From a virus (lineage: Duplodnaviria > Heunggongvirae > Uroviricota > Caudoviricetes), in IMG/VR virus record IMGVR_UViG_3300019374_000122, positions 1 to 7,114 of that record: DNA of 7,114 nucleotides; one strand, written 5' to 3'. The position numbers were made by a program, and so were the translations under genes. Shown one piece after another: positions 1 through 7,114 of this stretch. Under the pieces are notes generated by a model that did no database searches, had not been told where the DNA came from, and saw nothing but the letters and a program-made list of their open reading frames with translations. The stretch's first letter is position 1; each line of letters opens with the position of its first letter.

Positions 1-140
1 CCCCACCCCACCACCAATGGCAACAGAAAGCGATTTAGGCCATCCGACATACTCAAGCGCGGATGCAAAGGGCAAAGTCAGAGCGCCACATAGCAAAATC
101 TCGAGCGTTTTTTGCTTCCACCCCCCACCACCGACAATAA
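1..140. repeat. Direct repeat copy 1 (about 96% identical to 322..461, offset 321 bp); holin 3'-region sequence
   Basis: Base-by-base alignment of 1-130 with 322-451 shows 5 mismatches; identity decays over 131-140. The 321-bp offset is a multiple of 3. Confidence 0.9.
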
Positions 141-243
141 CATCATAACCGTGGTTACGTGTCGGTTGTCGCCCGTTATCCGTTCCTTCTGACCATGCAA
201 CCATATCCAGGAAAGCTTTACGCTGGGAATTTAGTACCTGCAT
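1..243 (-). CDS. Endolysin (lambda R-type lytic transglycosylase) 5' portion, fused in-frame after codon ~39 to a diverged copy of the holin 3' region; ORF runs off the window at position 1
   Basis: ATG at 243..241, with AAGGAG at 250-255 six nt upstream and directly after the holin stop. Translation MQVLNSQRKAFLDMVAWSEGTDNGRQPTRNHGYDVIVGG closely matches the N-terminus of phage lambda R as I recall it (MVEINNQRKAFLDMLAWSEGTDNGRQKTRNHGYDVIVGG...). It then continues GGWKQKTLEILLCGALTLPFASALEYVGWPKSLSVAIGGGVG, which is holin sequence. No stop codon before the window edge. Confidence 0.6.
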   Translation of the reverse strand, partial: MQVLNSQRKAFLDMVAWSEGTDNGRQPTRNHGYDVIVGGGGWKQKTLEILLCGALTLPFASALEYVGWPKSLSVAIGGGVG

Positions 244-246
244 AAA

Positions 247-582
247 TTACTCCTTCGAGCTACCAAACTTGTTACCGATTACTCTCATTGCAGCCCCACG
301 AATAGCATCGACACCGATCAGCCCCACCCCACCACCAATGGCAACAGAAAGCGATTTAGGCCATCCGACATACTCAAGCGCGGATGCAAAGGTCAACGTC
401 AGAGCGCCACATAGCAAAATCTCGAGCGTTTTTCGCTTCCAGCCACCACCACCGCCAAAATAGGCGATGCGCAAACCAGCCATAACAATCGACATAATCA
501 CTGCGCCCAGCGGCGTATCTCCACGCCACCAGCTCTGAAACAACTCCAGCCAGTCCGGCCAAGTATTTGGGTTATGAGGCAT
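247..582 (-). CDS. Holin, phage lambda S family (class I, three predicted TM segments)
   Basis: Translation from ATG 582..580 (MPHNPNTWPDWLELFQSWWRGDTPLGAVIMSIVMAGLRIAYFGGGGGWKRK...GVDAIRGAAMRVIGNKFGSSKE) aligns in pattern with lambda S (…AMAYLRGRYNGGAFTKTV…IGTDSIGSLIKRFAAKKAG). It sits immediately upstream of, and is translationally linked to, the endolysin start. The track's longer ORF begins at an in-frame GTG at 678, inside the methyltransferase C-terminus, which I consider unlikely as the start. Confidence 0.8.
   Translation of the reverse strand: MPHNPNTWPDWLELFQSWWRGDTPLGAVIMSIVMAGLRIAYFGGGGGWKRKTLEILLCGALTLTFASALEYVGWPKSLSVAIGGGVGLIGVDAIRGAAMRVIGNKFGSSKE
322..461. repeat. Direct repeat copy 2, lying inside the intact holin gene
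   Basis: Same alignment as copy 1; this copy is embedded in the complete holin ORF. Confidence 0.9.
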
Positions 583-658
583 TTCGTCATCTCTCACCTC
601 GCGATATTTGCGGGTGCTGTGTTGGAAATAAAAAGGCCACGCAACGTGGCCACCAGAA

Positions 659-1710
659 TTATTTCCCCACCAGTTCACTTACCTCTTTCACCGTCTGATT
701 AAATCGCTCTGACTCAAGTTCAACACCTAACGCCCGACGCCCCAGCGCCATTGCCGCTTTTATTGTGGAACCGGATCCCATAAGAAATCAGCAACCAGAT
801 CGCCTTGTCGACTACTGGCACTGATTATTTGCCGGAGCATATCCGCAGGCTTCTCACACGGATGTTTACCCGGGTAGAACTGAACGGGTTTATGCGTCCA
901 GACGTCGGTATAAGGCACGGAAACTGATACGGAGAAATAGCGCCGGAGAGTTTTAAACTCATCCAGCAATTCAGAATATTTGCGATTCAGTGAATCATAA
1001 GATGCCACCAGCTGGTGGTGTGGTTGTTCCAGTTGTTGTTCCTGAAATTTCTCTGCCGCTATACGGGAAAACAGTGCCTGCAACTTCCGGTAGTCAGCCT
1101 CATTCGGCAACTGCCACTGACTGGCACCAAACCAGTGGGAAACCATATTTTTCTTACCTGTGGCTTCGGCAATTTGTTTTGCCGTTATACCCAGTTCGGC
1201 ACGAGCATCCCTGAAATACGATATCAGCGGTGCCATTATGTGCTGTTTGAGTTCCCTTTCTTTTGCCGCATAGCCGTCACTTTTGCCGCGATATGGCCCC
1301 TGGTAATGTTCAGCAAACAGAACGCGCTCTGTGGCAGGAAAATATGCGCGCAGACTTTCTTTATTACACCCATTCCAACGTCCGGACGGCTTCGCCCAGA
1401 TGATATGGTTAAGCACGTTGAAACGTTCACGCATCATGATCTCAATATCAGATGCCAGGCGATGCCCACAGAACAGGTAAAGGCTTCCGGCAGGTTTCAA
1501 CACCCGCCAGAACTGGGCCAGACAGTGGTCCAGCCACTTAAGGTAATCTTCGTCCCCTTTCCACTGATTGTCCCAGCCGTTGGGTTTCACCTTGAAGTAC
1601 GGCGGATCGGTAACAATCAGGTCAATGGAATCATCAGGCAGGGACTGAATAAAATGCAGGCAATCAGCGTTGATTAAATCAACACTGTTTATTTTTACAG
1701 TATTTTTCAT
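659..1710 (-). pseudogene. Beta-class DNA methyltransferase (N6-adenine/N4-cytosine, DPPY motif), disrupted by a 1-nt frameshift just before the C-terminal FxGxG AdoMet-binding motif
   Basis: The ORF 760..1710 carries IVTDPPYF near the N-terminus and ends ...DLVADFLWDPVPQ*. A different frame from ATG 781..779 reads MGSGSTIKAAMALGRRALGVELESERFNQTVKEVSELVGK*, with stop at 661..659, which is the canonical motif I and C-terminus. A single missing base around 782-790 would restore one continuous ORF. Confidence 0.75.
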
Positions 1711-1860
1711 GGATCAGTAAGCGTAACTCTGGTAGGCTCACTCTGCTTTTGCGCTAAAGCAGTGGGCCGTGGTTCGCTTGTGACCAGTAGGCATGAGCGA
1801 ATGGCTGGCAGGTGCTACCAACACCCACCAGCCGCCCATTTTCACAGCAGGAAACCGCCA

Positions 1861-2064
1861 TTACTGGCAGCGTCTGAATTTATTCCCGTACCCGCCGTTA
1901 TCCTTCGCCAGACCCGCCAGAACTAACTGAGTCAGTATTAACTGGCACCGGGCTTCGCTTACTCCGGTAGTTCTCGTCATCATGCGTGGCGTTACCCACT
2001 TGTCAGCAGGTAAGAAATGAAGGACTGCGGCGGCGGTTTCTGTCATATCTTGCTGTTTTAGCAT
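1861..2064 (-). CDS. Small hypothetical protein (67 aa), possibly DNA-binding; function unknown
   Basis: ATG at 2064..2062 is preceded by AAGGGA about 7 nt upstream on the minus strand. Translation: MLKQQDMTETAAAVLHFLPADKWVTPRMMTRTTGVSEARCQLILTQLVLAGLAKDNGGYGNKFRRCQ. The track ORF extends to a GTG at 2148 with no RBS. Confidence 0.4.
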   Translation of the reverse strand: MLKQQDMTETAAAVLHFLPADKWVTPRMMTRTTGVSEARCQLILTQLVLAGLAKDNGGYGNKFRRCQ

Positions 2065-2185
2065 GTTTTTTCCCTTCTGGTTAACATGACATACCAATAA
2101 CTCTTGTCTAAAAAGCCAGCAAGATAAAAAGCCAGTATTCACGACCACCAGCGTGTTTACTGTACTGCACCAGGTTTACAGGTAC

Positions 2186-2207
2186 AAAAAAACCGCTCAG
2201 CGGCGGG
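2186..2207 (-). terminator. Candidate intrinsic terminator for minus-strand transcription (short GC hairpin followed by U7)
   Basis: Minus-strand RNA reads cccgccgcugagcgg followed by uuuuuuu (plus-strand A7 at 2186-2192). The stem is only 4-5 bp, so this is weak. Confidence 0.3.
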
Positions 2208-2287
2208 TTTAAGTTGTGTGGCGAAGTAACCACTCTTAACAGATTACAATGTTTTTTGCGGACCGCGCTAATGATTTCCTCTTTTTT

Positions 2288-2317
2288 TTGTTGTATTTTT
2301 CACACGGTTGCTAAAAT
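2288..2317 (+). promoter_or_regulatory. Candidate sigma70 promoter for the plus-strand island (-35 TTGTTG, 18-nt spacer, -10 TAAAAT), preceded by a T-rich tract
   Basis: TTGTTG at 2288-2293 and TAAAAT at 2312-2317, with a T-rich UP-like tract at 2281-2300. The implied leader before ATG 2333 is very short, so the exact start site is uncertain. Confidence 0.35.
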
Positions 2318-2332
2318 TATTTCGGATCGATA

Positions 2333-3274
2333 ATGAGTACAGAAAATAAGAATAAAACTAGGCGAGTGAGAGTTGGTTTTTTCACTGGTAATGGAAGCAA
2401 AAAAGATGGCACATCTGCTGCAAAACTAGCCTTTGAGCAAATGACCACAGCAGATACTGTAACTTTTCCAATAACTTACACAACAGACACCCCAAATCGA
2501 GGGTTAAAGTTAGTTATTCTTCAAAAAGATACCACACTGCAATGTTACTTTGGTTACGTATCGTGGAGAAGGGAATGCCTACTACCGTTCATCGAGGATG
2601 CTACAGGTAGTGAGAGAACAATTCCTTTAAATGATAAAGATTCTGTAGTTGAAAGAACATATTTTATCTATTACTACGAAACGGATTTATTAGCTATGAC
2701 CCTCAACCATATAGGGCCCAAAGTAAATGATCTGGCATTCATTTTGTATAACAAAACTGATTTAAAAAGCGTCACTTTTGAAGCCATTTGGAAACAAGAG
2801 AGCATGAAGGAACTGCTTGAGGACGGAAATATCCTACGTAGTTTCGATCTTATAGTTGCTGCTCCAAGAAACTTTAACAAAGCTAATTATAAGATTAAAA
2901 ACCCTTTAGCTAATGAAATTATTGACATGGTTGTTGGTATGGGCGGGTCGCATCTAAGATTAAATATGCGAGGTCGGATTCGCCCGAAAAAACAAGGTTT
3001 TAACTATCTAAAAACTTCTGTCACCGATGCTATTAAGGAACTACTTGAACTTTTTCCAAAAGGTTCTGGAGGTCTAAAAATTAAAAAAATTGATGTAACA
3101 GAGCCATCCAATAGAACGCCCAAAAGTCTACTTGACCAAGTATTGGTCAGTACAAAGACAATCATTGTCAAAAGCGGTTATCCATCCGATTCTGATATCA
3201 GAACGGCGATGATATCTGCTAAAATTGATAACGCGAACTATCTTGCACAGTATGAGCTCGCTAGCAGAGACTAA
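2333..3274 (+). CDS. Hypothetical soluble protein (313 aa), first gene of the AT-rich island; candidate sensor component of a phage-exclusion/abortive-infection module
   Basis: Long uninterrupted ORF in an AT-rich segment (about 38% GC in a 100-nt hand count at 2333-2432, against about 48% at 4201-4300 in the flank). No Walker A, DPPY, HNH or other motif that I recognise. Its stop is 22 nt from the RBS-led start of the membrane-protein gene. Confidence 0.8.
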   Translation: MSTENKNKTRRVRVGFFTGNGSKKDGTSAAKLAFEQMTTADTVTFPITYTTDTPNRGLKLVILQKDTTLQCYFGYVSWRRECLLPFIEDATGSERTIPLNDKDSVVERTYFIYYYETDLLAMTLNHIGPKVNDLAFILYNKTDLKSVTFEAIWKQESMKELLEDGNILRSFDLIVAAPRNFNKANYKIKNPLANEIIDMVVGMGGSHLRLNMRGRIRPKKQGFNYLKTSVTDAIKELLELFPKGSGGLKIKKIDVTEPSNRTPKSLLDQVLVSTKTIIVKSGYPSDSDIRTAMISAKIDNANYLAQYELASRD

Positions 3275-3295
3275 TAACCAAGCATGGAGGACACA

Positions 3296-3745
3296 ATGAG
3301 AGAATTAGCCACTTTTCTCTGGAAATGCGTCCTCTGGATTCTGTTGACCTATGCAGCGACAAAACTGTTTAAACCGATGAAGCATGCTGACGTACTCACA
3401 ACAGCGGGGGTGCTCTCGACTATATCAGGCATCCTGTTTGGTTTTGTTCTGGCTGCAATATCTATATTTAGTAGTGCAAACAGCGATAAGGAAGGAGCAA
3501 TTAATGCCCTTAAGCAAAACAACGTGTTACCAACTCTGGTAAATCGATTACTTTCAACAGGGTTAACTCTCATCGTCGCATGTATATTTCCATTGATAGC
3601 GATGTTTCTACCAGATGATGTTATTGTTGCGGGCAAACCTATTGATTTCCTATTCATACTGTTAGGCTTATCCTCCCTTATAATTTCGCTATATACCTTC
3701 GGAAGGTGTTGGTTAGTGTTACGAAAAATCTTCCCCCACTTGTGA
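3296..3745 (+). CDS. Small integral membrane protein (~149 aa, four predicted TM helices); candidate effector of the island
   Basis: GGAGG at 3286-3290 lies 5 nt upstream of ATG 3296; an alternative ATG at 3284 has no RBS. Four hydrophobic stretches: LATFLWKCVLWILLTYAATKLF, VLTTAGVLSTISGILFGFVLAAISIF, LPTLVNRLLSTGLTLIVACIFPLIAMFL, PIDFLFILLGLSSLIISLYTFGRCWLVL. Confidence 0.8.
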   Translation: MRELATFLWKCVLWILLTYAATKLFKPMKHADVLTTAGVLSTISGILFGFVLAAISIFSSANSDKEGAINALKQNNVLPTLVNRLLSTGLTLIVACIFPLIAMFLPDDVIVAGKPIDFLFILLGLSSLIISLYTFGRCWLVLRKIFPHL

Positions 3746-3774
3746 CAGGTTGGCCTCATATGGGGCCAACCTGT
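3745..3774. terminator. Perfect 11-bp inverted repeat (acaggttggcc / ggccaacctgt) with 8-nt loop, between the convergent island and Q; likely bidirectional stem-loop terminator or insulator
   Basis: Left arm 3745-3755, right arm 3764-3774, loop tcatatgg. It overlaps the stop codon of the membrane-protein gene and lies 7 bp from the Q stop. There is no adjacent U-run on either strand. Confidence 0.5.
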
Positions 3775-3780
3775 GCAACC

Positions 3781-4149
3781 CTAAGCGTCCATTTCAAGGT
3801 TAACATCCAACATTGAAAGGCAACCATCAATAAATCCTTCGGCTAGTTGTATTTCTATGCGTACCAATTTTTCATCCTTTCCACGCACCTTTGCAATCTT
3901 ACGCTTGGATATTCTGTATAAATAATGTGCCACAAGCAGCGAGTGCTCATCTGGCTTTTTTTGCTTTAGACGAGCAAGACAACCTTCAATAATTAATGCA
4001 TCACTATCTGAACAAGCCTGACGTGTTTTGCTTGTGTAGGGAAGAAGCCCCTTAAACCCAGCAGCTATAGGCGAATAGTCTACTCCAGAACTATCACTCG
4101 CCGCCCATGCTCCCCAACGCTCCAGAACCATCTGAATATCACGCATCAA
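3781..4149 (-). CDS. Late-gene antitermination protein Q (phage 82/21 QuuD-like family)
   Basis: Translation MMRDIQMVLERWGAWAA... matches the N-terminal signature of QuuD-type Q proteins as I recall it (MRDIQMVLERWGAWAA...). GGAG lies 7 nt upstream of ATG 4149. Position upstream of the lysis genes fits. Confidence 0.85.
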   Translation of the reverse strand: MMRDIQMVLERWGAWAASDSSGVDYSPIAAGFKGLLPYTSKTRQACSDSDALIIEGCLARLKQKKPDEHSLLVAHYLYRISKRKIAKVRGKDEKLVRIEIQLAEGFIDGCLSMLDVNLEMDA

Positions 4150-4163
4150 CTTTCTCCACCAAA

Positions 4164-5159
4164 TCAGGCCAACACACCAATCGCCAGCGCGCGATCGATA
4201 AAACGAAATATCAGCTCCAGTTGGGAGCCATACTTCTCTTCAAATGCCACGGTATCCGCATGCAGCTCGTCGTGATGCTTTCTGCACAAAGGCAACACAA
4301 AGAGGTCATGCGCTTTTGTACCCATTCCACCCTGACCGTGACCTATCAGGTGGTGGGGATCATCAGCAGGCTTTCCACAACATGCACACGGCTGTGTCTT
4401 AACCCAGCGCGTGTACTTTTCATTAACCCAGCGGCGGCGTTTTGGGCGTAACATAAAAGACTCCGGCGACTCCGGATCCACTTTCAGCGCCAGCACCTTT
4501 TTCGCCTTATCCTGGATGATGCTGGTGGCAGGAACCGAAGGCACAAGGTCACTTTCCCGGGTGACAGACGGCACAACAGGCTTCGGTAATCTCAGTGCCT
4601 TACGGGCTGCACTTTCCGGTAAGGCATCTGCCAGATCATTACGAATCAGCCACCAGCACAGTTCCGGCATTGTCACAACGTGACTATCATCAAAACCGAG
4701 ATCCCGACGCACAACAGACAACACCCAGCGGGCACAGTTATCCGTTGCCATTGATTCCAGCCGTTCCGTGAACTGATCGCGAAGCTGGTTATCGCAGTGC
4801 CAGCACAGACGGATTGCGCCCGGCGCGTGTCGCATTGTGGTCATGTTCTCGCTGTGCCAGTCGGAATGAGGCCACTGGCAGCCTTTTTCACGAAGTAACC
4901 AGCTTTCAAGACATTCCACCCCACCAGCACGACGAATCACTGCCTCATTACGGAACACGGCCAGAACGGCAGGATCATCCGCCAGCGGTTGTGATGCCGC
5001 AGGAACGGCACCACTGGCGAAAGATGAATAACGCTCCGGCTCAGGCTCCAGCAGAACACGGCCCTGCATAAACAGGGGCATCAGCTCTGAACCTGGCCTG
5101 AACAATACGATCCCCATACGCGGGGCAATTTCAGGGGTCAGTAGTGCTCTCACGGTCAC
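4164..5159 (-). CDS. DUF968-like prophage protein with C-terminal Cys/His-rich (HNH-like) motif; start codon uncertain
   Basis: 331-aa ORF; C-terminus PCACCGKPADDPHHLIGHGQGGMGTKAHDLFVLPLCRKHHDELH. The track start is a GTG at 5159, one nt after the KilA-N stop, with no clear RBS; internal ATGs are alternative starts. Confidence 0.65.
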   Translation of the reverse strand: MTVRALLTPEIAPRMGIVLFRPGSELMPLFMQGRVLLEPEPERYSSFASGAVPAASQPLADDPAVLAVFRNEAVIRRAGGVECLESWLLREKGCQWPHSDWHSENMTTMRHAPGAIRLCWHCDNQLRDQFTERLESMATDNCARWVLSVVRRDLGFDDSHVVTMPELCWWLIRNDLADALPESAARKALRLPKPVVPSVTRESDLVPSVPATSIIQDKAKKVLALKVDPESPESFMLRPKRRRWVNEKYTRWVKTQPCACCGKPADDPHHLIGHGQGGMGTKAHDLFVLPLCRKHHDELHADTVAFEEKYGSQLELIFRFIDRALAIGVLA

Positions 5160-5160
5160 C

Positions 5161-5970
5161 TCAATGAACGGTATCGAGCAGCTTTAACAGCTCAGTGAAT
5201 CGGGATTCGAAGAAATGCGGCTGCGTCTCGCGCGGATTTGCAGGACTGGTGATGTTCTTGCCGAACATGCAGCCTTTCGCCGTCAGCGACCAGAATTTTT
5301 TGATGTTGTTAATCGCTGTACGGCTGTATCGTTCGCGCTGTTCGACGATCCCCAGCTTCGCCATCTGGTGATATGCCTGATTAGCCGTCAGGCGGATACC
5401 ATACTGCTTCAGCAGTGCACTCAGTGACAGCGTGGGGCGGCTTGAGCCATCAGGCGCGTCAGCAGGAACATCAATGGCATAACGCGGTGCCAGATTCGGT
5501 AAGCCAACAGCCTCCTGGAGTTTCTGACAGGCCCCAAGCACAGATGAGTTAGACAGATTTAACTCCCGGCGCATAAAGTCCAGCAGAATCACGCCAGCCT
5601 GCATCTTGTCAGCAGCCTGTCCGGATAACTTTTCCGGCGCGCTGGTTACCATATCGAAAGTACGGATCACCTTCAGATGGAATGACGGGCTGATCCACAT
5701 TGCATAGGCATACACCAGTTCCTTACAGACATACGTTCCCCGTTCATTTCCCCCATGAATCACACTAACTGGGTCAACACCCAAATTCTGGGTGTTGATT
5801 AATTCATGAACAAGATCAACAGTTTGTTGGCTGGAAAGAAACTTTCCTGGCTCCTTGGTTCTGGCATTTGCACCAGATGCTACTGCTGCGCGATGCAGAT
5901 CGTTCAGGCTGTAACGCTCATAAGCATCACGACGAACTTCAATACCATCAATGACCATCAGATTATTCAT
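5161..5970 (-). CDS. KilA-N domain protein (Roi/antirepressor-like DNA-binding protein)
   Basis: N-terminus MNNLMVIDGIEVRRDAYERYSLNDLHRAAVASG... fits the KilA-N pattern. ATG 5970 is preceded by GAGGGG about 8 nt upstream. Confidence 0.7.
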   Translation of the reverse strand: MNNLMVIDGIEVRRDAYERYSLNDLHRAAVASGANARTKEPGKFLSSQQTVDLVHELINTQNLGVDPVSVIHGGNERGTYVCKELVYAYAMWISPSFHLKVIRTFDMVTSAPEKLSGQAADKMQAGVILLDFMRRELNLSNSSVLGACQKLQEAVGLPNLAPRYAIDVPADAPDGSSRPTLSLSALLKQYGIRLTANQAYHQMAKLGIVEQRERYSRTAINNIKKFWSLTAKGCMFGKNITSPANPRETQPHFFESRFTELLKLLDTVH

Positions 5971-5989
5971 ACTTCGTTTCCCCTCTTAA

Positions 5990-6379
5990 TCAGGCAGCTG
6001 CACCCGCCGTTTTCTCGTACTTACTGATAGTGATCTCGACCTTCCCTTCCGGGATAACCGGTCCCCACTCCACCAGCATTCTTTTCACCTGACTGTCGTC
6101 TTCCCACACCCCCGCGTGGGTCAGGGCGTCAAACAGCGCCTTGTTATAGTTGTCCAGATCGCGGATCCTGTTATCCGGAGGAAACAACACGATCTCCACT
6201 GAAGCAGGTGCCGACGTTGGTTTCGGCAGACGACGTAACTGCTCAACTATTGCTGCGCACGCCGCGCTCTGGAATTTTCGCCCCGCCGCGCTTATCAGGC
6301 TCTTACCAGCAAACGCCCCTTTGTTGGGGTGTCGCCAGTACGTGTTCACGCTGGGCGGAAAAGGCAGGATCAGCTTCAT
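5990..6379 (-). CDS. rusA: Holliday junction resolvase RusA
   Basis: MKLILPFPPSVNTYWRH...RIRDLDNYNKALFDALTHAGVWEDDSQV matches the E. coli RusA pattern (PWPPSxNxYYRH...[28 protein letters not shown]), including the catalytic Asp cluster. Its start overlaps the upstream stop as ATGA. Confidence 0.9.
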   Translation of the reverse strand: MKLILPFPPSVNTYWRHPNKGAFAGKSLISAAGRKFQSAACAAIVEQLRRLPKPTSAPASVEIVLFPPDNRIRDLDNYNKALFDALTHAGVWEDDSQVKRMLVEWGPVIPEGKVEITISKYEKTAGAAA

Positions 6380-6702
6380 ACTTTCAGGCCCCTCTCATGT
6401 AACCAGTGGGTTGCACGCAGCCTTGCGTTTTCCTCACCGGCAAGCAGTGAGCGGATAATCCCGACCGCCTCGCTGTCGTCGTCCTTCACCGCGGTATGAA
6501 GCGTGATGCCCCGGGCCACGCCACGCTTTATCGTGATGACGCCTTTTTTCTCCAGTGCGCGAAGATGCTCCACCGCTGCATTCACTGAACGGTATCCCAG
6601 CATGGTTGCCACCTCCTGATTGGTTGGCGGGAAGCCACGTTCTTTCTGATAAGAAATCAGCATATCCAGCACCTGCTGCTGGCATTGAGTTAACGTCGTC
6701 AT
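6376..6702 (-). CDS. LexA N-terminal DNA-binding-domain homolog lacking the S24 peptidase domain (108 aa)
   Basis: From ATG 6702..6700: MTTLTQCQQQVLDMLISYQKERGFPPTNQEVATMLGYRSVNAAVEHLRALEKKGVITIKRGVARGITL aligns with E. coli LexA residues ~4-68 ([65 protein letters not shown]). No Ser/Lys protease domain follows. The start overlaps the upstream stop as TAATG. Confidence 0.8.
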   Translation of the reverse strand: MTTLTQCQQQVLDMLISYQKERGFPPTNQEVATMLGYRSVNAAVEHLRALEKKGVITIKRGVARGITLHTAVKDDDSEAVGIIRSLLAGEENARLRATHWLHERGLKV

Positions 6703-7052
6703 TAAGCCCCCACGTAATTCCCTGACAGATACCACTCATCACCCGATGCAGCGCGCTTGCTGCTTTTCCGTAAGCACCGCTCACGACGCGCAAGAAAATT
6801 GTTTCGCTCTTGCTGGGAGTGGCTTTCACGGAATGCCGCCATCCACACCGTTGCAGCACGACGGTATAAGCCCCTGGACTCCAGTTCTTCCGCCTGGCGG
6901 GTCAGGCACAAAATCTCCCGCGGGTCGTTAGTGCCGACATAGAAATTGCGCACAGGTCTGGTTTCACGAACTGGTTGCGGTTCCGCCTCCTGCGCTCTCT
7001 CAGTCAGGCGCGGGAAATGTCTGCGTGTATCCCCTTCACAACGGTGAGCCAC
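6702..7052 (-). CDS. PerC-family-like regulator domain; true start uncertain because the frame stays open to the window edge
   Basis: AEELESRGLYRRAATVWMAAF...ERNNFLARRERCL resembles the PerC/Pch pattern (AExLExxGxWRRAAxxW...RRxxCL). The track start is a GTG at 7052, and the same frame has no stop between 7053 and 7114. Confidence 0.55.
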   Translation of the reverse strand: MAHRCEGDTRRHFPRLTERAQEAEPQPVRETRPVRNFYVGTNDPREILCLTRQAEELESRGLYRRAATVWMAAFRESHSQQERNNFLARRERCLRKSSKRAASGDEWYLSGNYVGA

Positions 7053-7114
7053 ACGACCACTCTGACGTAACTTGCTTGCTGACTGCAGAACGCGCTGCCG
7101 TGAGTAACCTGCAA

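Follow-up and report, generated by a model that had tools for sequence, protein, structure and literature searches.

A probable late-promoter cassette displaced from the antiterminator gene Q by an antisense cargo island in a lambdoid prophage

The subject of this study is a short hairpin followed by seven U residues on the minus strand of a 7,114-nt stretch of tailed-phage DNA (IMG/VR record IMGVR_UViG_3300019374_000122, positions 1 to 7,114). This whole stretch is hereafter called the window, and all coordinates are given in its numbering. A first-pass annotation had proposed that the hairpin may be tR', the terminator that the antiterminator Q overrides, and that it may mark the true start of the late transcript, displaced from Q by an island. 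Our analysis upholds that proposal: with a probability of about 0.78, we take 2290-2186 to be the late regulatory cassette of a lambdoid prophage, composed of a sigma-70 late promoter (pR'), a Q-loading site and tR', and parted from Q by the island. Support comes from homology to the late promoter region of phages 933W and Sp5, from loci in which no cargo separates the cassette from Q, from the linkage of the cassette to Q and the co-variation of its palindrome with Q, from the presence of the same hairpin in phage SfV, and from the 35-nt gap between Q and the island. That a late promoter cassette has been displaced by the island is well supported, and sequence comparison makes it likely that the hairpin is an efficient tR'; it is also from such comparison that we infer promoter activity of the window allele, Q binding to the palindrome, pausing, and the efficiency of termination at the hairpin.

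In the mechanism that we propose, Q would be made from the early transcript, 1.5 kb upstream, and the palindrome GCGGTCCGC with its adjoining A-tract would be the binding site for the prophage's own Q. The block at the start site, GTTAAGAGT, would hold RNA polymerase, still with sigma, for Q loading. Without Q, transcripts would end at the hairpin, or at a weak site at 2152-2121, while with Q they would read through into a 67-aa winged-helix gene (hereafter ORF67, for open reading frame), a frameshifted methyltransferase gene, the holin gene and the remaining late operon. The island would be cargo that has come to lie past the Q stop codon and ahead of pR'; late control would survive this insertion, since Q works in trans and its site is portable.

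Anatomy of the cassette

Alignment of viral loci indicates that the hairpin is the 3' end of one conserved cassette of about 105 bp, at 2290-2186 on the minus strand. These loci, 120 in number, were collected by scanning viral contigs for the 25-mer directly upstream of the hairpin. The aligned unit consists of an A-rich stretch, a palindrome of 8-14 bp with a run of A, six bases and a TAnnnT hexamer, followed by GTTAAGAGTGGTTACTTCGCCACACARCTT, then AAACCCGC, a loop and GCGG(G)TTTT. Above about -45 the DNA is hypervariable, and after the T-run it falls into several unrelated sequence classes. The parts of the cassette in the window, and a second hairpin in the leader, are as follows.

2272..2290, minus strand: A-rich 5' edge of the cassette, a possible UP-like region (alignments of the upstream flank; likeness to other phages stops beyond it)
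2258..2266, no strand assigned: palindrome GCGGTCCGC, candidate Q-binding element (its type goes with the Q clade in all 108 loci)
2241..2246, minus strand: -10 hexamer TAATCT of the predicted pR' (TAnnnT is kept in register in nearly all variants; corresponds to TATCAT of 933W)
2232..2240, minus strand: start block GTTAAGAGT, with the predicted start at A2234 (+/-2 nt; alignment, and the distance mapped in Sp5)
2186..2210, minus strand: terminator AAACCCGCCGCTGAGCGG plus U7, candidate tR' (stem scan, folding, homology to annotated terminators of SfV, Ayreon and 933W)
2121..2152, minus strand: second, weaker terminator-like hairpin with T5 in the leader (7 pairs, then TTTTTATCTT; -7.4 kcal/mol, z -1.2)

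An A6 run at 2257-2252 follows the palindrome, and the two together lie at about -33 to -19 from the predicted start (-33 to -24 for the palindrome alone). The assignment of the start relies on 933W/Sp5, whose pR' region is 82% identical to 2241-2181 of the window (E = 4e-11). In Sp5, the pR' start has been mapped by differential RNA sequencing (dRNA-seq) and a 3' end by Term-seq, 257 nt apart (Sy et al. 2020). Counted back from the T-run of the second Sp5 terminator, and assuming that the mapped 3' end lies in that T-run (the genome version differs), the Sp5 start falls 7 nt (+/-2) after TATCAT, inside AAGAG; by homology to this mapped start and to TATCAT, we place the window start at A2234 +/- 2 and the -10 at TAATCT. 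Alternative -10 registers 2 nt upstream (TGTAAT/TGTATC) or 5 nt upstream (CATTGT/TATTGT) were rejected, as only TAnnnT is kept across the variants and fits both the 933W annotation and the Sp5 mapping.

The start block is the most conserved part of the cassette across genera, its GnTAAGAGT exceeding even the -10: in the alignment (A3), which comprises 46 distinct sequences, nearly all of them from the cross-genus loci, each of columns 1-9 is either invariant or conserved to 90% or more. The block is a possible sigma-dependent pause element (SDPE). At +7 to +12, 933W has an additional -10-like TACATT, and the window has TACTTC. We also considered AAGAGT-GG-TTACTTCGC as a counterpart of the lambda pause module AACGAT-GGG-TTAATTCGC (13 of 21 identities, by eye) and rejected it, given that it lies 3 nt rather than 6 nt after the -10.

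Linkage of the cassette to Q

The window Q matches PF06530 over residues 2-119 of 122 (E = 7.7e-52), the same profile that is matched by Q933 and Q21, and is 48% identical to Q933 and 50% to K-12 QuuD; the Q21 structure is distant (E = 0.002). Among the viral loci, a PF06530-like Q lies upstream on the same strand in all 108 that have sufficient upstream DNA, at a distance from the cassette that ranges from 27 nt to 3.8 kb and amounts to 1540 nt in the window. Eleven viral loci with a Q of the same clade carry no cargo, and there the cassette begins 27-38 nt past the Q stop codon.

Because the viral set had been chosen by its 25-mer, the test of linkage was repeated from Q homologues. An alignment of Q from five clades yielded 80 loci, each from a different species and including Yersinia, Serratia, Xenorhabdus, Erwinia, Pantoea and Proteus, and a cassette profile was then searched on both strands over 6 kb to each side of Q. 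The profile matched 69 of these 80 loci, and all 83 matches lay downstream of Q and on the Q strand; within this scope there was none upstream of Q or antisense to it. A hairpin of -7 kcal/mol or better with a T-run was present at +15 to +120 in 54 of the 69 cross-genus cassettes (median about +63), compared with 10% of random windows, so that across genera the feature is kept though its sequence changes. The upstream boundary of the shared DNA differs with the Q that a phage carries: in those with a 250-aa Q (SfV, Ayreon, mEp460 and Stx2c phages), likeness to the window extends only from 2209 downwards, i.e., from the hairpin on, while in those with a small Q (cdtI, mEp460_4F5, PhiR40_1 and phiP27) another 33-68 nt upstream match.

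Two Serratia loci carry tandem 109-nt units right after Q, with 7-8 copies in Serratia montpellierensis (locus L170, 6465-7319) and 3 in Serratia marcescens (locus L161, 6458-6783). Each unit holds a palindrome, a TAATCT hexamer, a variant start region and a strong terminator, and thus the whole constitutes an array of promoter-terminator cassettes.

Palindromes and Q clades

Protein clustering divides the Q proteins into five clades, and each clade has a single palindrome type, without exception in the 108 loci. These types are GCGTACGC, GCGGTCCGC (the window type), TGTTATAACA, TTTACnnTCGTAAA and GGAATTCC, and whatever the clade, 15 bp separate the centre of the palindrome from the -10 hexamer downstream of it. 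The palindromes that go with Q933 and QuuD, two proteins with 78-83% identity to clade C4, are both of the C4 type. The Q clades diverge most in a predicted helix-turn-helix segment.

These data lead us to a broader proposal, to which we give slightly less than an even chance: that the palindrome is the Q-binding element (QBE) of Q933/QuuD-type antiterminators, read by a symmetric Q dimer as opposed to the direct repeat of Q21; that at least five specificity classes prevent cross-activation of co-resident prophages; and that trans action on a portable cassette of about 105 bp has made the junction of Q and pR' a major hotspot for antisense defence or conversion genes (nmpC in K-12, the island here, and STAND, KAP and ABC-ATPase genes elsewhere). 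The pairing of Q clade and palindrome amounts to a testable prediction of the Q-binding site for the Q933 family, which controls Stx2 expression.

The hairpin

On the minus strand, the stem GCCGCTGAGCGGT at 2204..2192 has 5 pairs (one of them G-U) and a 3-nt loop and runs into TTTTTTTGTAC, with the T7 run at 2192-2186. The first-pass annotation, which had put a GC hairpin and seven U residues at 2186-2207 of this strand, was thus essentially right. The RNA terminated here would be about 49 nt long (2234 to 2186). Taken alone, the hairpin folds at -6.3 kcal/mol (z = -0.86), a value equalled by 37 of 200 shuffles, and terminator-like sites across the window number 16, against 7.4 +/- 2.7 expected. 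The hairpin alone is therefore not beyond chance, and its significance comes only from conservation and context.

An Rfam search of 1700-4200 at a permissive E-value returned no match. A 5' leader hairpin, GTGG..CCAC at 2233-2218, was considered and left unsupported; it is 79% paired but does no better than shuffles (32/500) and has one double change only. Between the terminator and ORF67, CTGGCTTTTTA occurs twice in the leader, 16 nt apart (2135-2125 and 2119-2109, minus strand), and the second terminator-like site takes its 3' arm and its T-run from the first copy. In Ayreon and mEp460, the hairpin is duplicated (1824 and 2501; loci L001 and L006), its copies flanking a moron ORF of about 420 bp after a lambda-type pR', an arrangement which suggests that the duplicated hairpin may serve as a recombination or insertion junction.

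Points of doubt and alternative explanations

Several observations weigh against the interpretation of 2290-2186 as the late control cassette. A recognisable -35 is missing from the window allele (TTAGCG stands at 19 bp), and a consensus promoter scan called no promoter here. The pause element is not pinned down, given that the invariant TAAGAG overlaps the start, compared to +2 to +7 in phage 21. Linkage over 0-4 kb may account for part of the match between palindrome type and Q clade; however, the downstream modules and 31 kinds of cargo are mixed among the Q clades, which makes linkage a weaker explanation than a functional pairing of palindrome and Q. A search for compensatory covariation in the terminator stem found 0 double changes, with shuffle controls equal to the observed values, a result explained by the near invariance of the stem in the Escherichia coli set. 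Moreover, the window allele, which is common in the data set, lacks one G in the 3' arm (GCGG, one G short of GCGGG) and folds at -6.3 kcal/mol compared to -12 to -16.5 in its relatives. Finally, the mapped tR' of Sp5 is the second terminator, at +258, and the first, homologous hairpin is at least partly passed, a species of about 50 nt being outside the scope of the Sp5 paper.

The last two points would fit a reading in which the cassette is a late promoter but the hairpin-U7 element is leaky or vestigial, with termination further down (at 2152-2121, or elsewhere in the region of the leader and ORF67), and in which the hairpin is mainly the 3' end of a minor small RNA or a junction at which modules recombine. 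The hairpin and T5 in the window leader would supply such a downstream site, and the fact that likeness to the lambda-Q phages begins exactly at the hairpin, together with the two moron-flanking copies in Ayreon and mEp460, is the behaviour of a module boundary. Nevertheless, we regard this reading as unlikely: the stem is followed by a perfect U7, a strong hairpin and T-run persist in 54 of the 69 cross-genus cassettes, at a median of about +63, in spite of differing hairpin sequences, in neither SfV nor DLP12 is a further terminator evident on the way from the promoter to the first late gene, and phage 21 has its annotated tR' at an equal distance from the start.

Another possibility is that pR' lies right after Q or inside its 3' end, as in the canonical lambdoid arrangement and in 933W, where the -35 overlaps the Q coding sequence, and that Q-modified polymerase crosses the island antisense, with 2290-2186 being a relic or a secondary promoter. 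We consider this very improbable. The 35 nt between the Q stop and the convergent 153-aa island gene are filled by a T-less inverted repeat at 3747-3776 (-21 to -27 kcal/mol; z -3.3 and -5.1) and therefore leave no room for a promoter, and the promoter scan found no site there. In addition, every cargo-bearing locus has a full cassette, including the clade palindrome and the -10, on the late-gene side of its cargo, and where cargo is present no cassette match is found beside Q. Still less credence is due to the idea that a GC stem stands beside a T run here by chance, or that the hairpin works on the plus strand, insulating the promoter of the island. The hairpin alone is statistically unremarkable, and the scan did also list a plus-strand stem followed by GTTTAAGTTG, but this T tract is poor and there is no upstream plus-strand gene that needs termination. 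Furthermore, the hairpin is kept in register in more than 120 viral loci, and at least 936 of the 5426 complete E. coli genomes contain the cassette; the conservation already found thus effectively refutes a chance origin.

The cargo island

The island has a GC content of 0.33-0.44, compared to about 0.55 in its flanks, and its two limits are the Q stop with the hairpin at 3747-3776 and, opposite, the A-rich cassette edge. That hairpin may stop read-through of the Q gene from going antisense into the island.

2333..3776, plus strand (opposite to Q): cargo island, two ORFs and a hairpin (ORF list, GC)
2333-3274, plus strand: island ORF of 313 aa (ORF list)
3284-3745, plus strand: island ORF of 153 aa, a multi-pass membrane protein (ORF list)

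Searches of the island proteins against Pfam, PADLOC and NCBIfam gave no match, the only families found being phrog_7651 and phrog_8552, both of which are without functional annotation. Judged by its position, the pair is a candidate for a module of exclusion or defence. Back to back with the late cassette stands a weak promoter-like TTGTTG-18-TAAAAT (2288-2317), and the ATG at 2333 has no obvious Shine-Dalgarno (SD) sequence.

In other phages, the slot between Q and the cassette holds 31 distinct low-GC cargos of 0.5-3.7 kb, 49 of whose 52 ORFs are antisense to Q (viral loci L008-L127), and nmpC of K-12 sits in the same slot. Ten cargo proteins were sampled; they include a metallophosphatase-STAND NTPase, a KAP NTPase, an AAA_15/AAA_21 ATPase and an NA37-like protein, and the STAND, KAP and AAA_15/AAA_21 domains are typical of defence-like genes. 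The gap between Q and pR' is a handy landmark when mining prophages for defence genes.

Late genes and the remainder of the window

Phage genes occupy the minus strand throughout the window, and only the island runs on the plus strand (ORF list of the window). From right to left, the order is a LexA-like DNA-binding ORF, RusA, a KilA-N-like ORF, a DUF968 protein, Q, the island, the hairpin region, ORF67, the methyltransferase and the holin.

3781..4149, minus strand: Q antiterminator gene, 122 aa (Pfam PF06530; Q933/QuuD/Q21 family)
1861..2077 including the SD, minus strand: ORF67, 67 aa, a stand-alone winged-helix prediction and the first gene past the cassette (phrog_331)
659..1710, minus strand: N6/N4 DNA methyltransferase, frameshifted near 780 (PF01555)
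247..678, minus strand: holin of the lysis protein S family, a downstream late lysis gene (PF05106, E = 5.9e-27)

ORF67 runs from the ATG at 2064-2062 to the stop at 1863-1861. The first-pass annotation had the hairpin just upstream of this ORF, with a good ribosome-binding site; the ORF does lie downstream of the hairpin, but 121 nt separate the end of the U-run from its ATG, and the SD-like GAAGGGA at 2077-2071, 6-7 nt before the ATG, is of moderate strength. A 204-bp coding sequence corresponding to ORF67 is annotated in Ayreon, mEp460, mEp460_4F5 and PhiR40_1, and the product belongs to phrog_331, a family without functional annotation; homologues of 63-67 aa occur in Enterobacteriaceae, some of them named TrmB family regulator. 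AlphaFold with an alignment of 26 sequences predicted a winged-helix topology (a1-b1-a2-a3-b2-b3) with a predicted local distance difference test (pLDDT) score of 86.7, while the single-sequence prediction was poor (pLDDT 57). The best fold matches were the Z-DNA-binding Z-alpha domain (template modelling score 0.84-0.85; root-mean-square deviation 1.1-1.3 A), PefI, TrmBL2 and IscR, with weak E-values and low sequence identity to Z-alpha. Pfam, NCBIfam and PADLOC gave nothing useful for ORF67, and a sequence search of the PDB returned noise only. Our best guess from the predicted fold is that ORF67 encodes a small DNA-binding protein. It precedes the methyltransferase gene in the annotated phages examined (orf47-orf48 in SfV, L23-L24 in phiP27, and others).

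The methyltransferase coding sequence is split into ORFs at 760-1710 and 659-781, which together span 1052 nt compared to a 1053-nt coding sequence in related phages, indicating a 1-nt frameshift or a sequencing error. Dozens of complete E. coli chromosomes carry the region 1690-4200 at 100% identity, strains D3, 1283 and CFS3313 being examples of such matches, and 73 genomes cover 80% or more of it; the nearest sequenced phage that shares the layout is cdtI. At the left end of the window, 1-137 is a direct repeat (96%) of 322-458, itself within the holin gene. On the minus strand, an in-frame fusion joins this repeat to the first ~39 codons of a lambda R-like lysozyme (MQVLNSQRKAFLDMVAWSEGTDNGRQ...VIVGG, then GGWKQKTLEILL...), and window 1-243 is a rearranged or chimeric lysis region that continues past the window edge.

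For annotation, these findings bear on the assumption that pR' adjoins Q, which is often untrue in this family of enterobacterial prophages, where the cassette is never annotated. Knowing the true late start separates the late genes (ORF67, the methylase, lysis genes and, in related phages, Shiga toxin) from insulated lysogenic cargo.

Comparison with known late promoters

The closest characterized counterpart of the cassette is the pR' region of 933W/Sp5. Directly behind Q this region reads TTTACGATCGTAAAAATCTGCATATCATGATAAGAGTGGTTACATTGCCACGCAGTCGAACCCGCCGATGCGCGGGTTTTTTTGTACC, and it shares with the window the order of palindrome, A-tract, TAnnnT, G(A/T)TAAGAGTGGTTAC and AACCCGCC..GCGGGTTTTTTT, as well as a Q of the same family, PF06530. 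In the 933W record, pR' is given as TTTACG-16-TATCAT, a qut site is marked, and the hairpin is labelled a possible terminator. The two differ in that the 933W cassette is free of cargo and overlaps the end of Q, with its -35 inside the Q coding sequence, whereas 1540 nt intervene in the window; the 933W palindrome is of the C4 type, TTTACGATCGTAAA, rather than GCGGTCCGC, and in the 933W hairpin the GCGGG arm is complete. Of the 258-nt Sp5 leader, no more than the first ~56 nt align to the window, in which nothing matches the 3' part that gives rise to StxS, the 74-nt Hfq-binding RNA.

SfV has a Q of the lambda family (PF03589), a promoter TTGCAT-17-TAAGAT and a lambda-like start, AACGATGGG, and its likeness to the window begins only at the hairpin. 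That hairpin, AACCCGCCGCTGAGCGGGTTTTTTT, is the same as in the window, lies about 66 nt after pR' and is annotated in the record as a putative rho-independent terminator; the module downstream is also the same, with orf47 (the ORF67 homologue) and the methylase gene orf48. Since SfV and the cassette phages share the hairpin, two unrelated Q families would use it as the first terminator after pR'.

Lambda itself, with its pR', 6S RNA and tR', follows the same logic as proposed for the window, namely a promoter behind Q that fires constitutively, a site for Q in the interval from -35 to -10, a proximal pause, and a terminator overridden by Q. It differs from the window in its unrelated Q family (PF03589), its 194-nt leader, and the absence of cargo between Q and pR'. 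The Q of phage 21, a distant member of the same Pfam family as the window Q, acts on a similar layout, with a QBE between -35 and -10 (-27 to -12) and a terminator at +3 to +50; as predicted for the window, the end of the terminator comes about 46-50 nt past the start. The SDPE of phage 21, TAAGCTG at +2 to +8, resembles TAAGAGT of the window, and both begin with TAAG beside the transcription start, but the distance from this element to the -10 is 7 nt in phage 21 and 2 nt in the window. Likewise, the QBE of phage 21 consists of two direct 8-bp subsites, while the element in the QBE position of the window is a palindrome, i.e., an inverted repeat.

According to a paper that cites Rueggeberg et al. 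2013, a phage Q-type antiterminator controls the DLP12 lysis operon. Our literature search turned up no usable start or 3'-end data for quuD/essD. The primary paper on this K-12 prophage is said to describe a terminator at its cassette. The gene order in DLP12 is quuD, a reversed nmpC, the cassette and essD-rrrD-rzpD, the cassette lying about 120 nt ahead of the first lysis gene. Its cargo is a porin gene interrupted by IS5, and it differs further from the window in having a C4 palindrome and a good -35, TTTACG, and in lacking the module of small ORF and methylase. As in the window, however, a Q of the same family is parted from its cassette by cargo in reverse orientation. What the window presents is therefore an ordinary lambdoid late-control element in an unusual position, and its displacement from Q already has a precedent in K-12.

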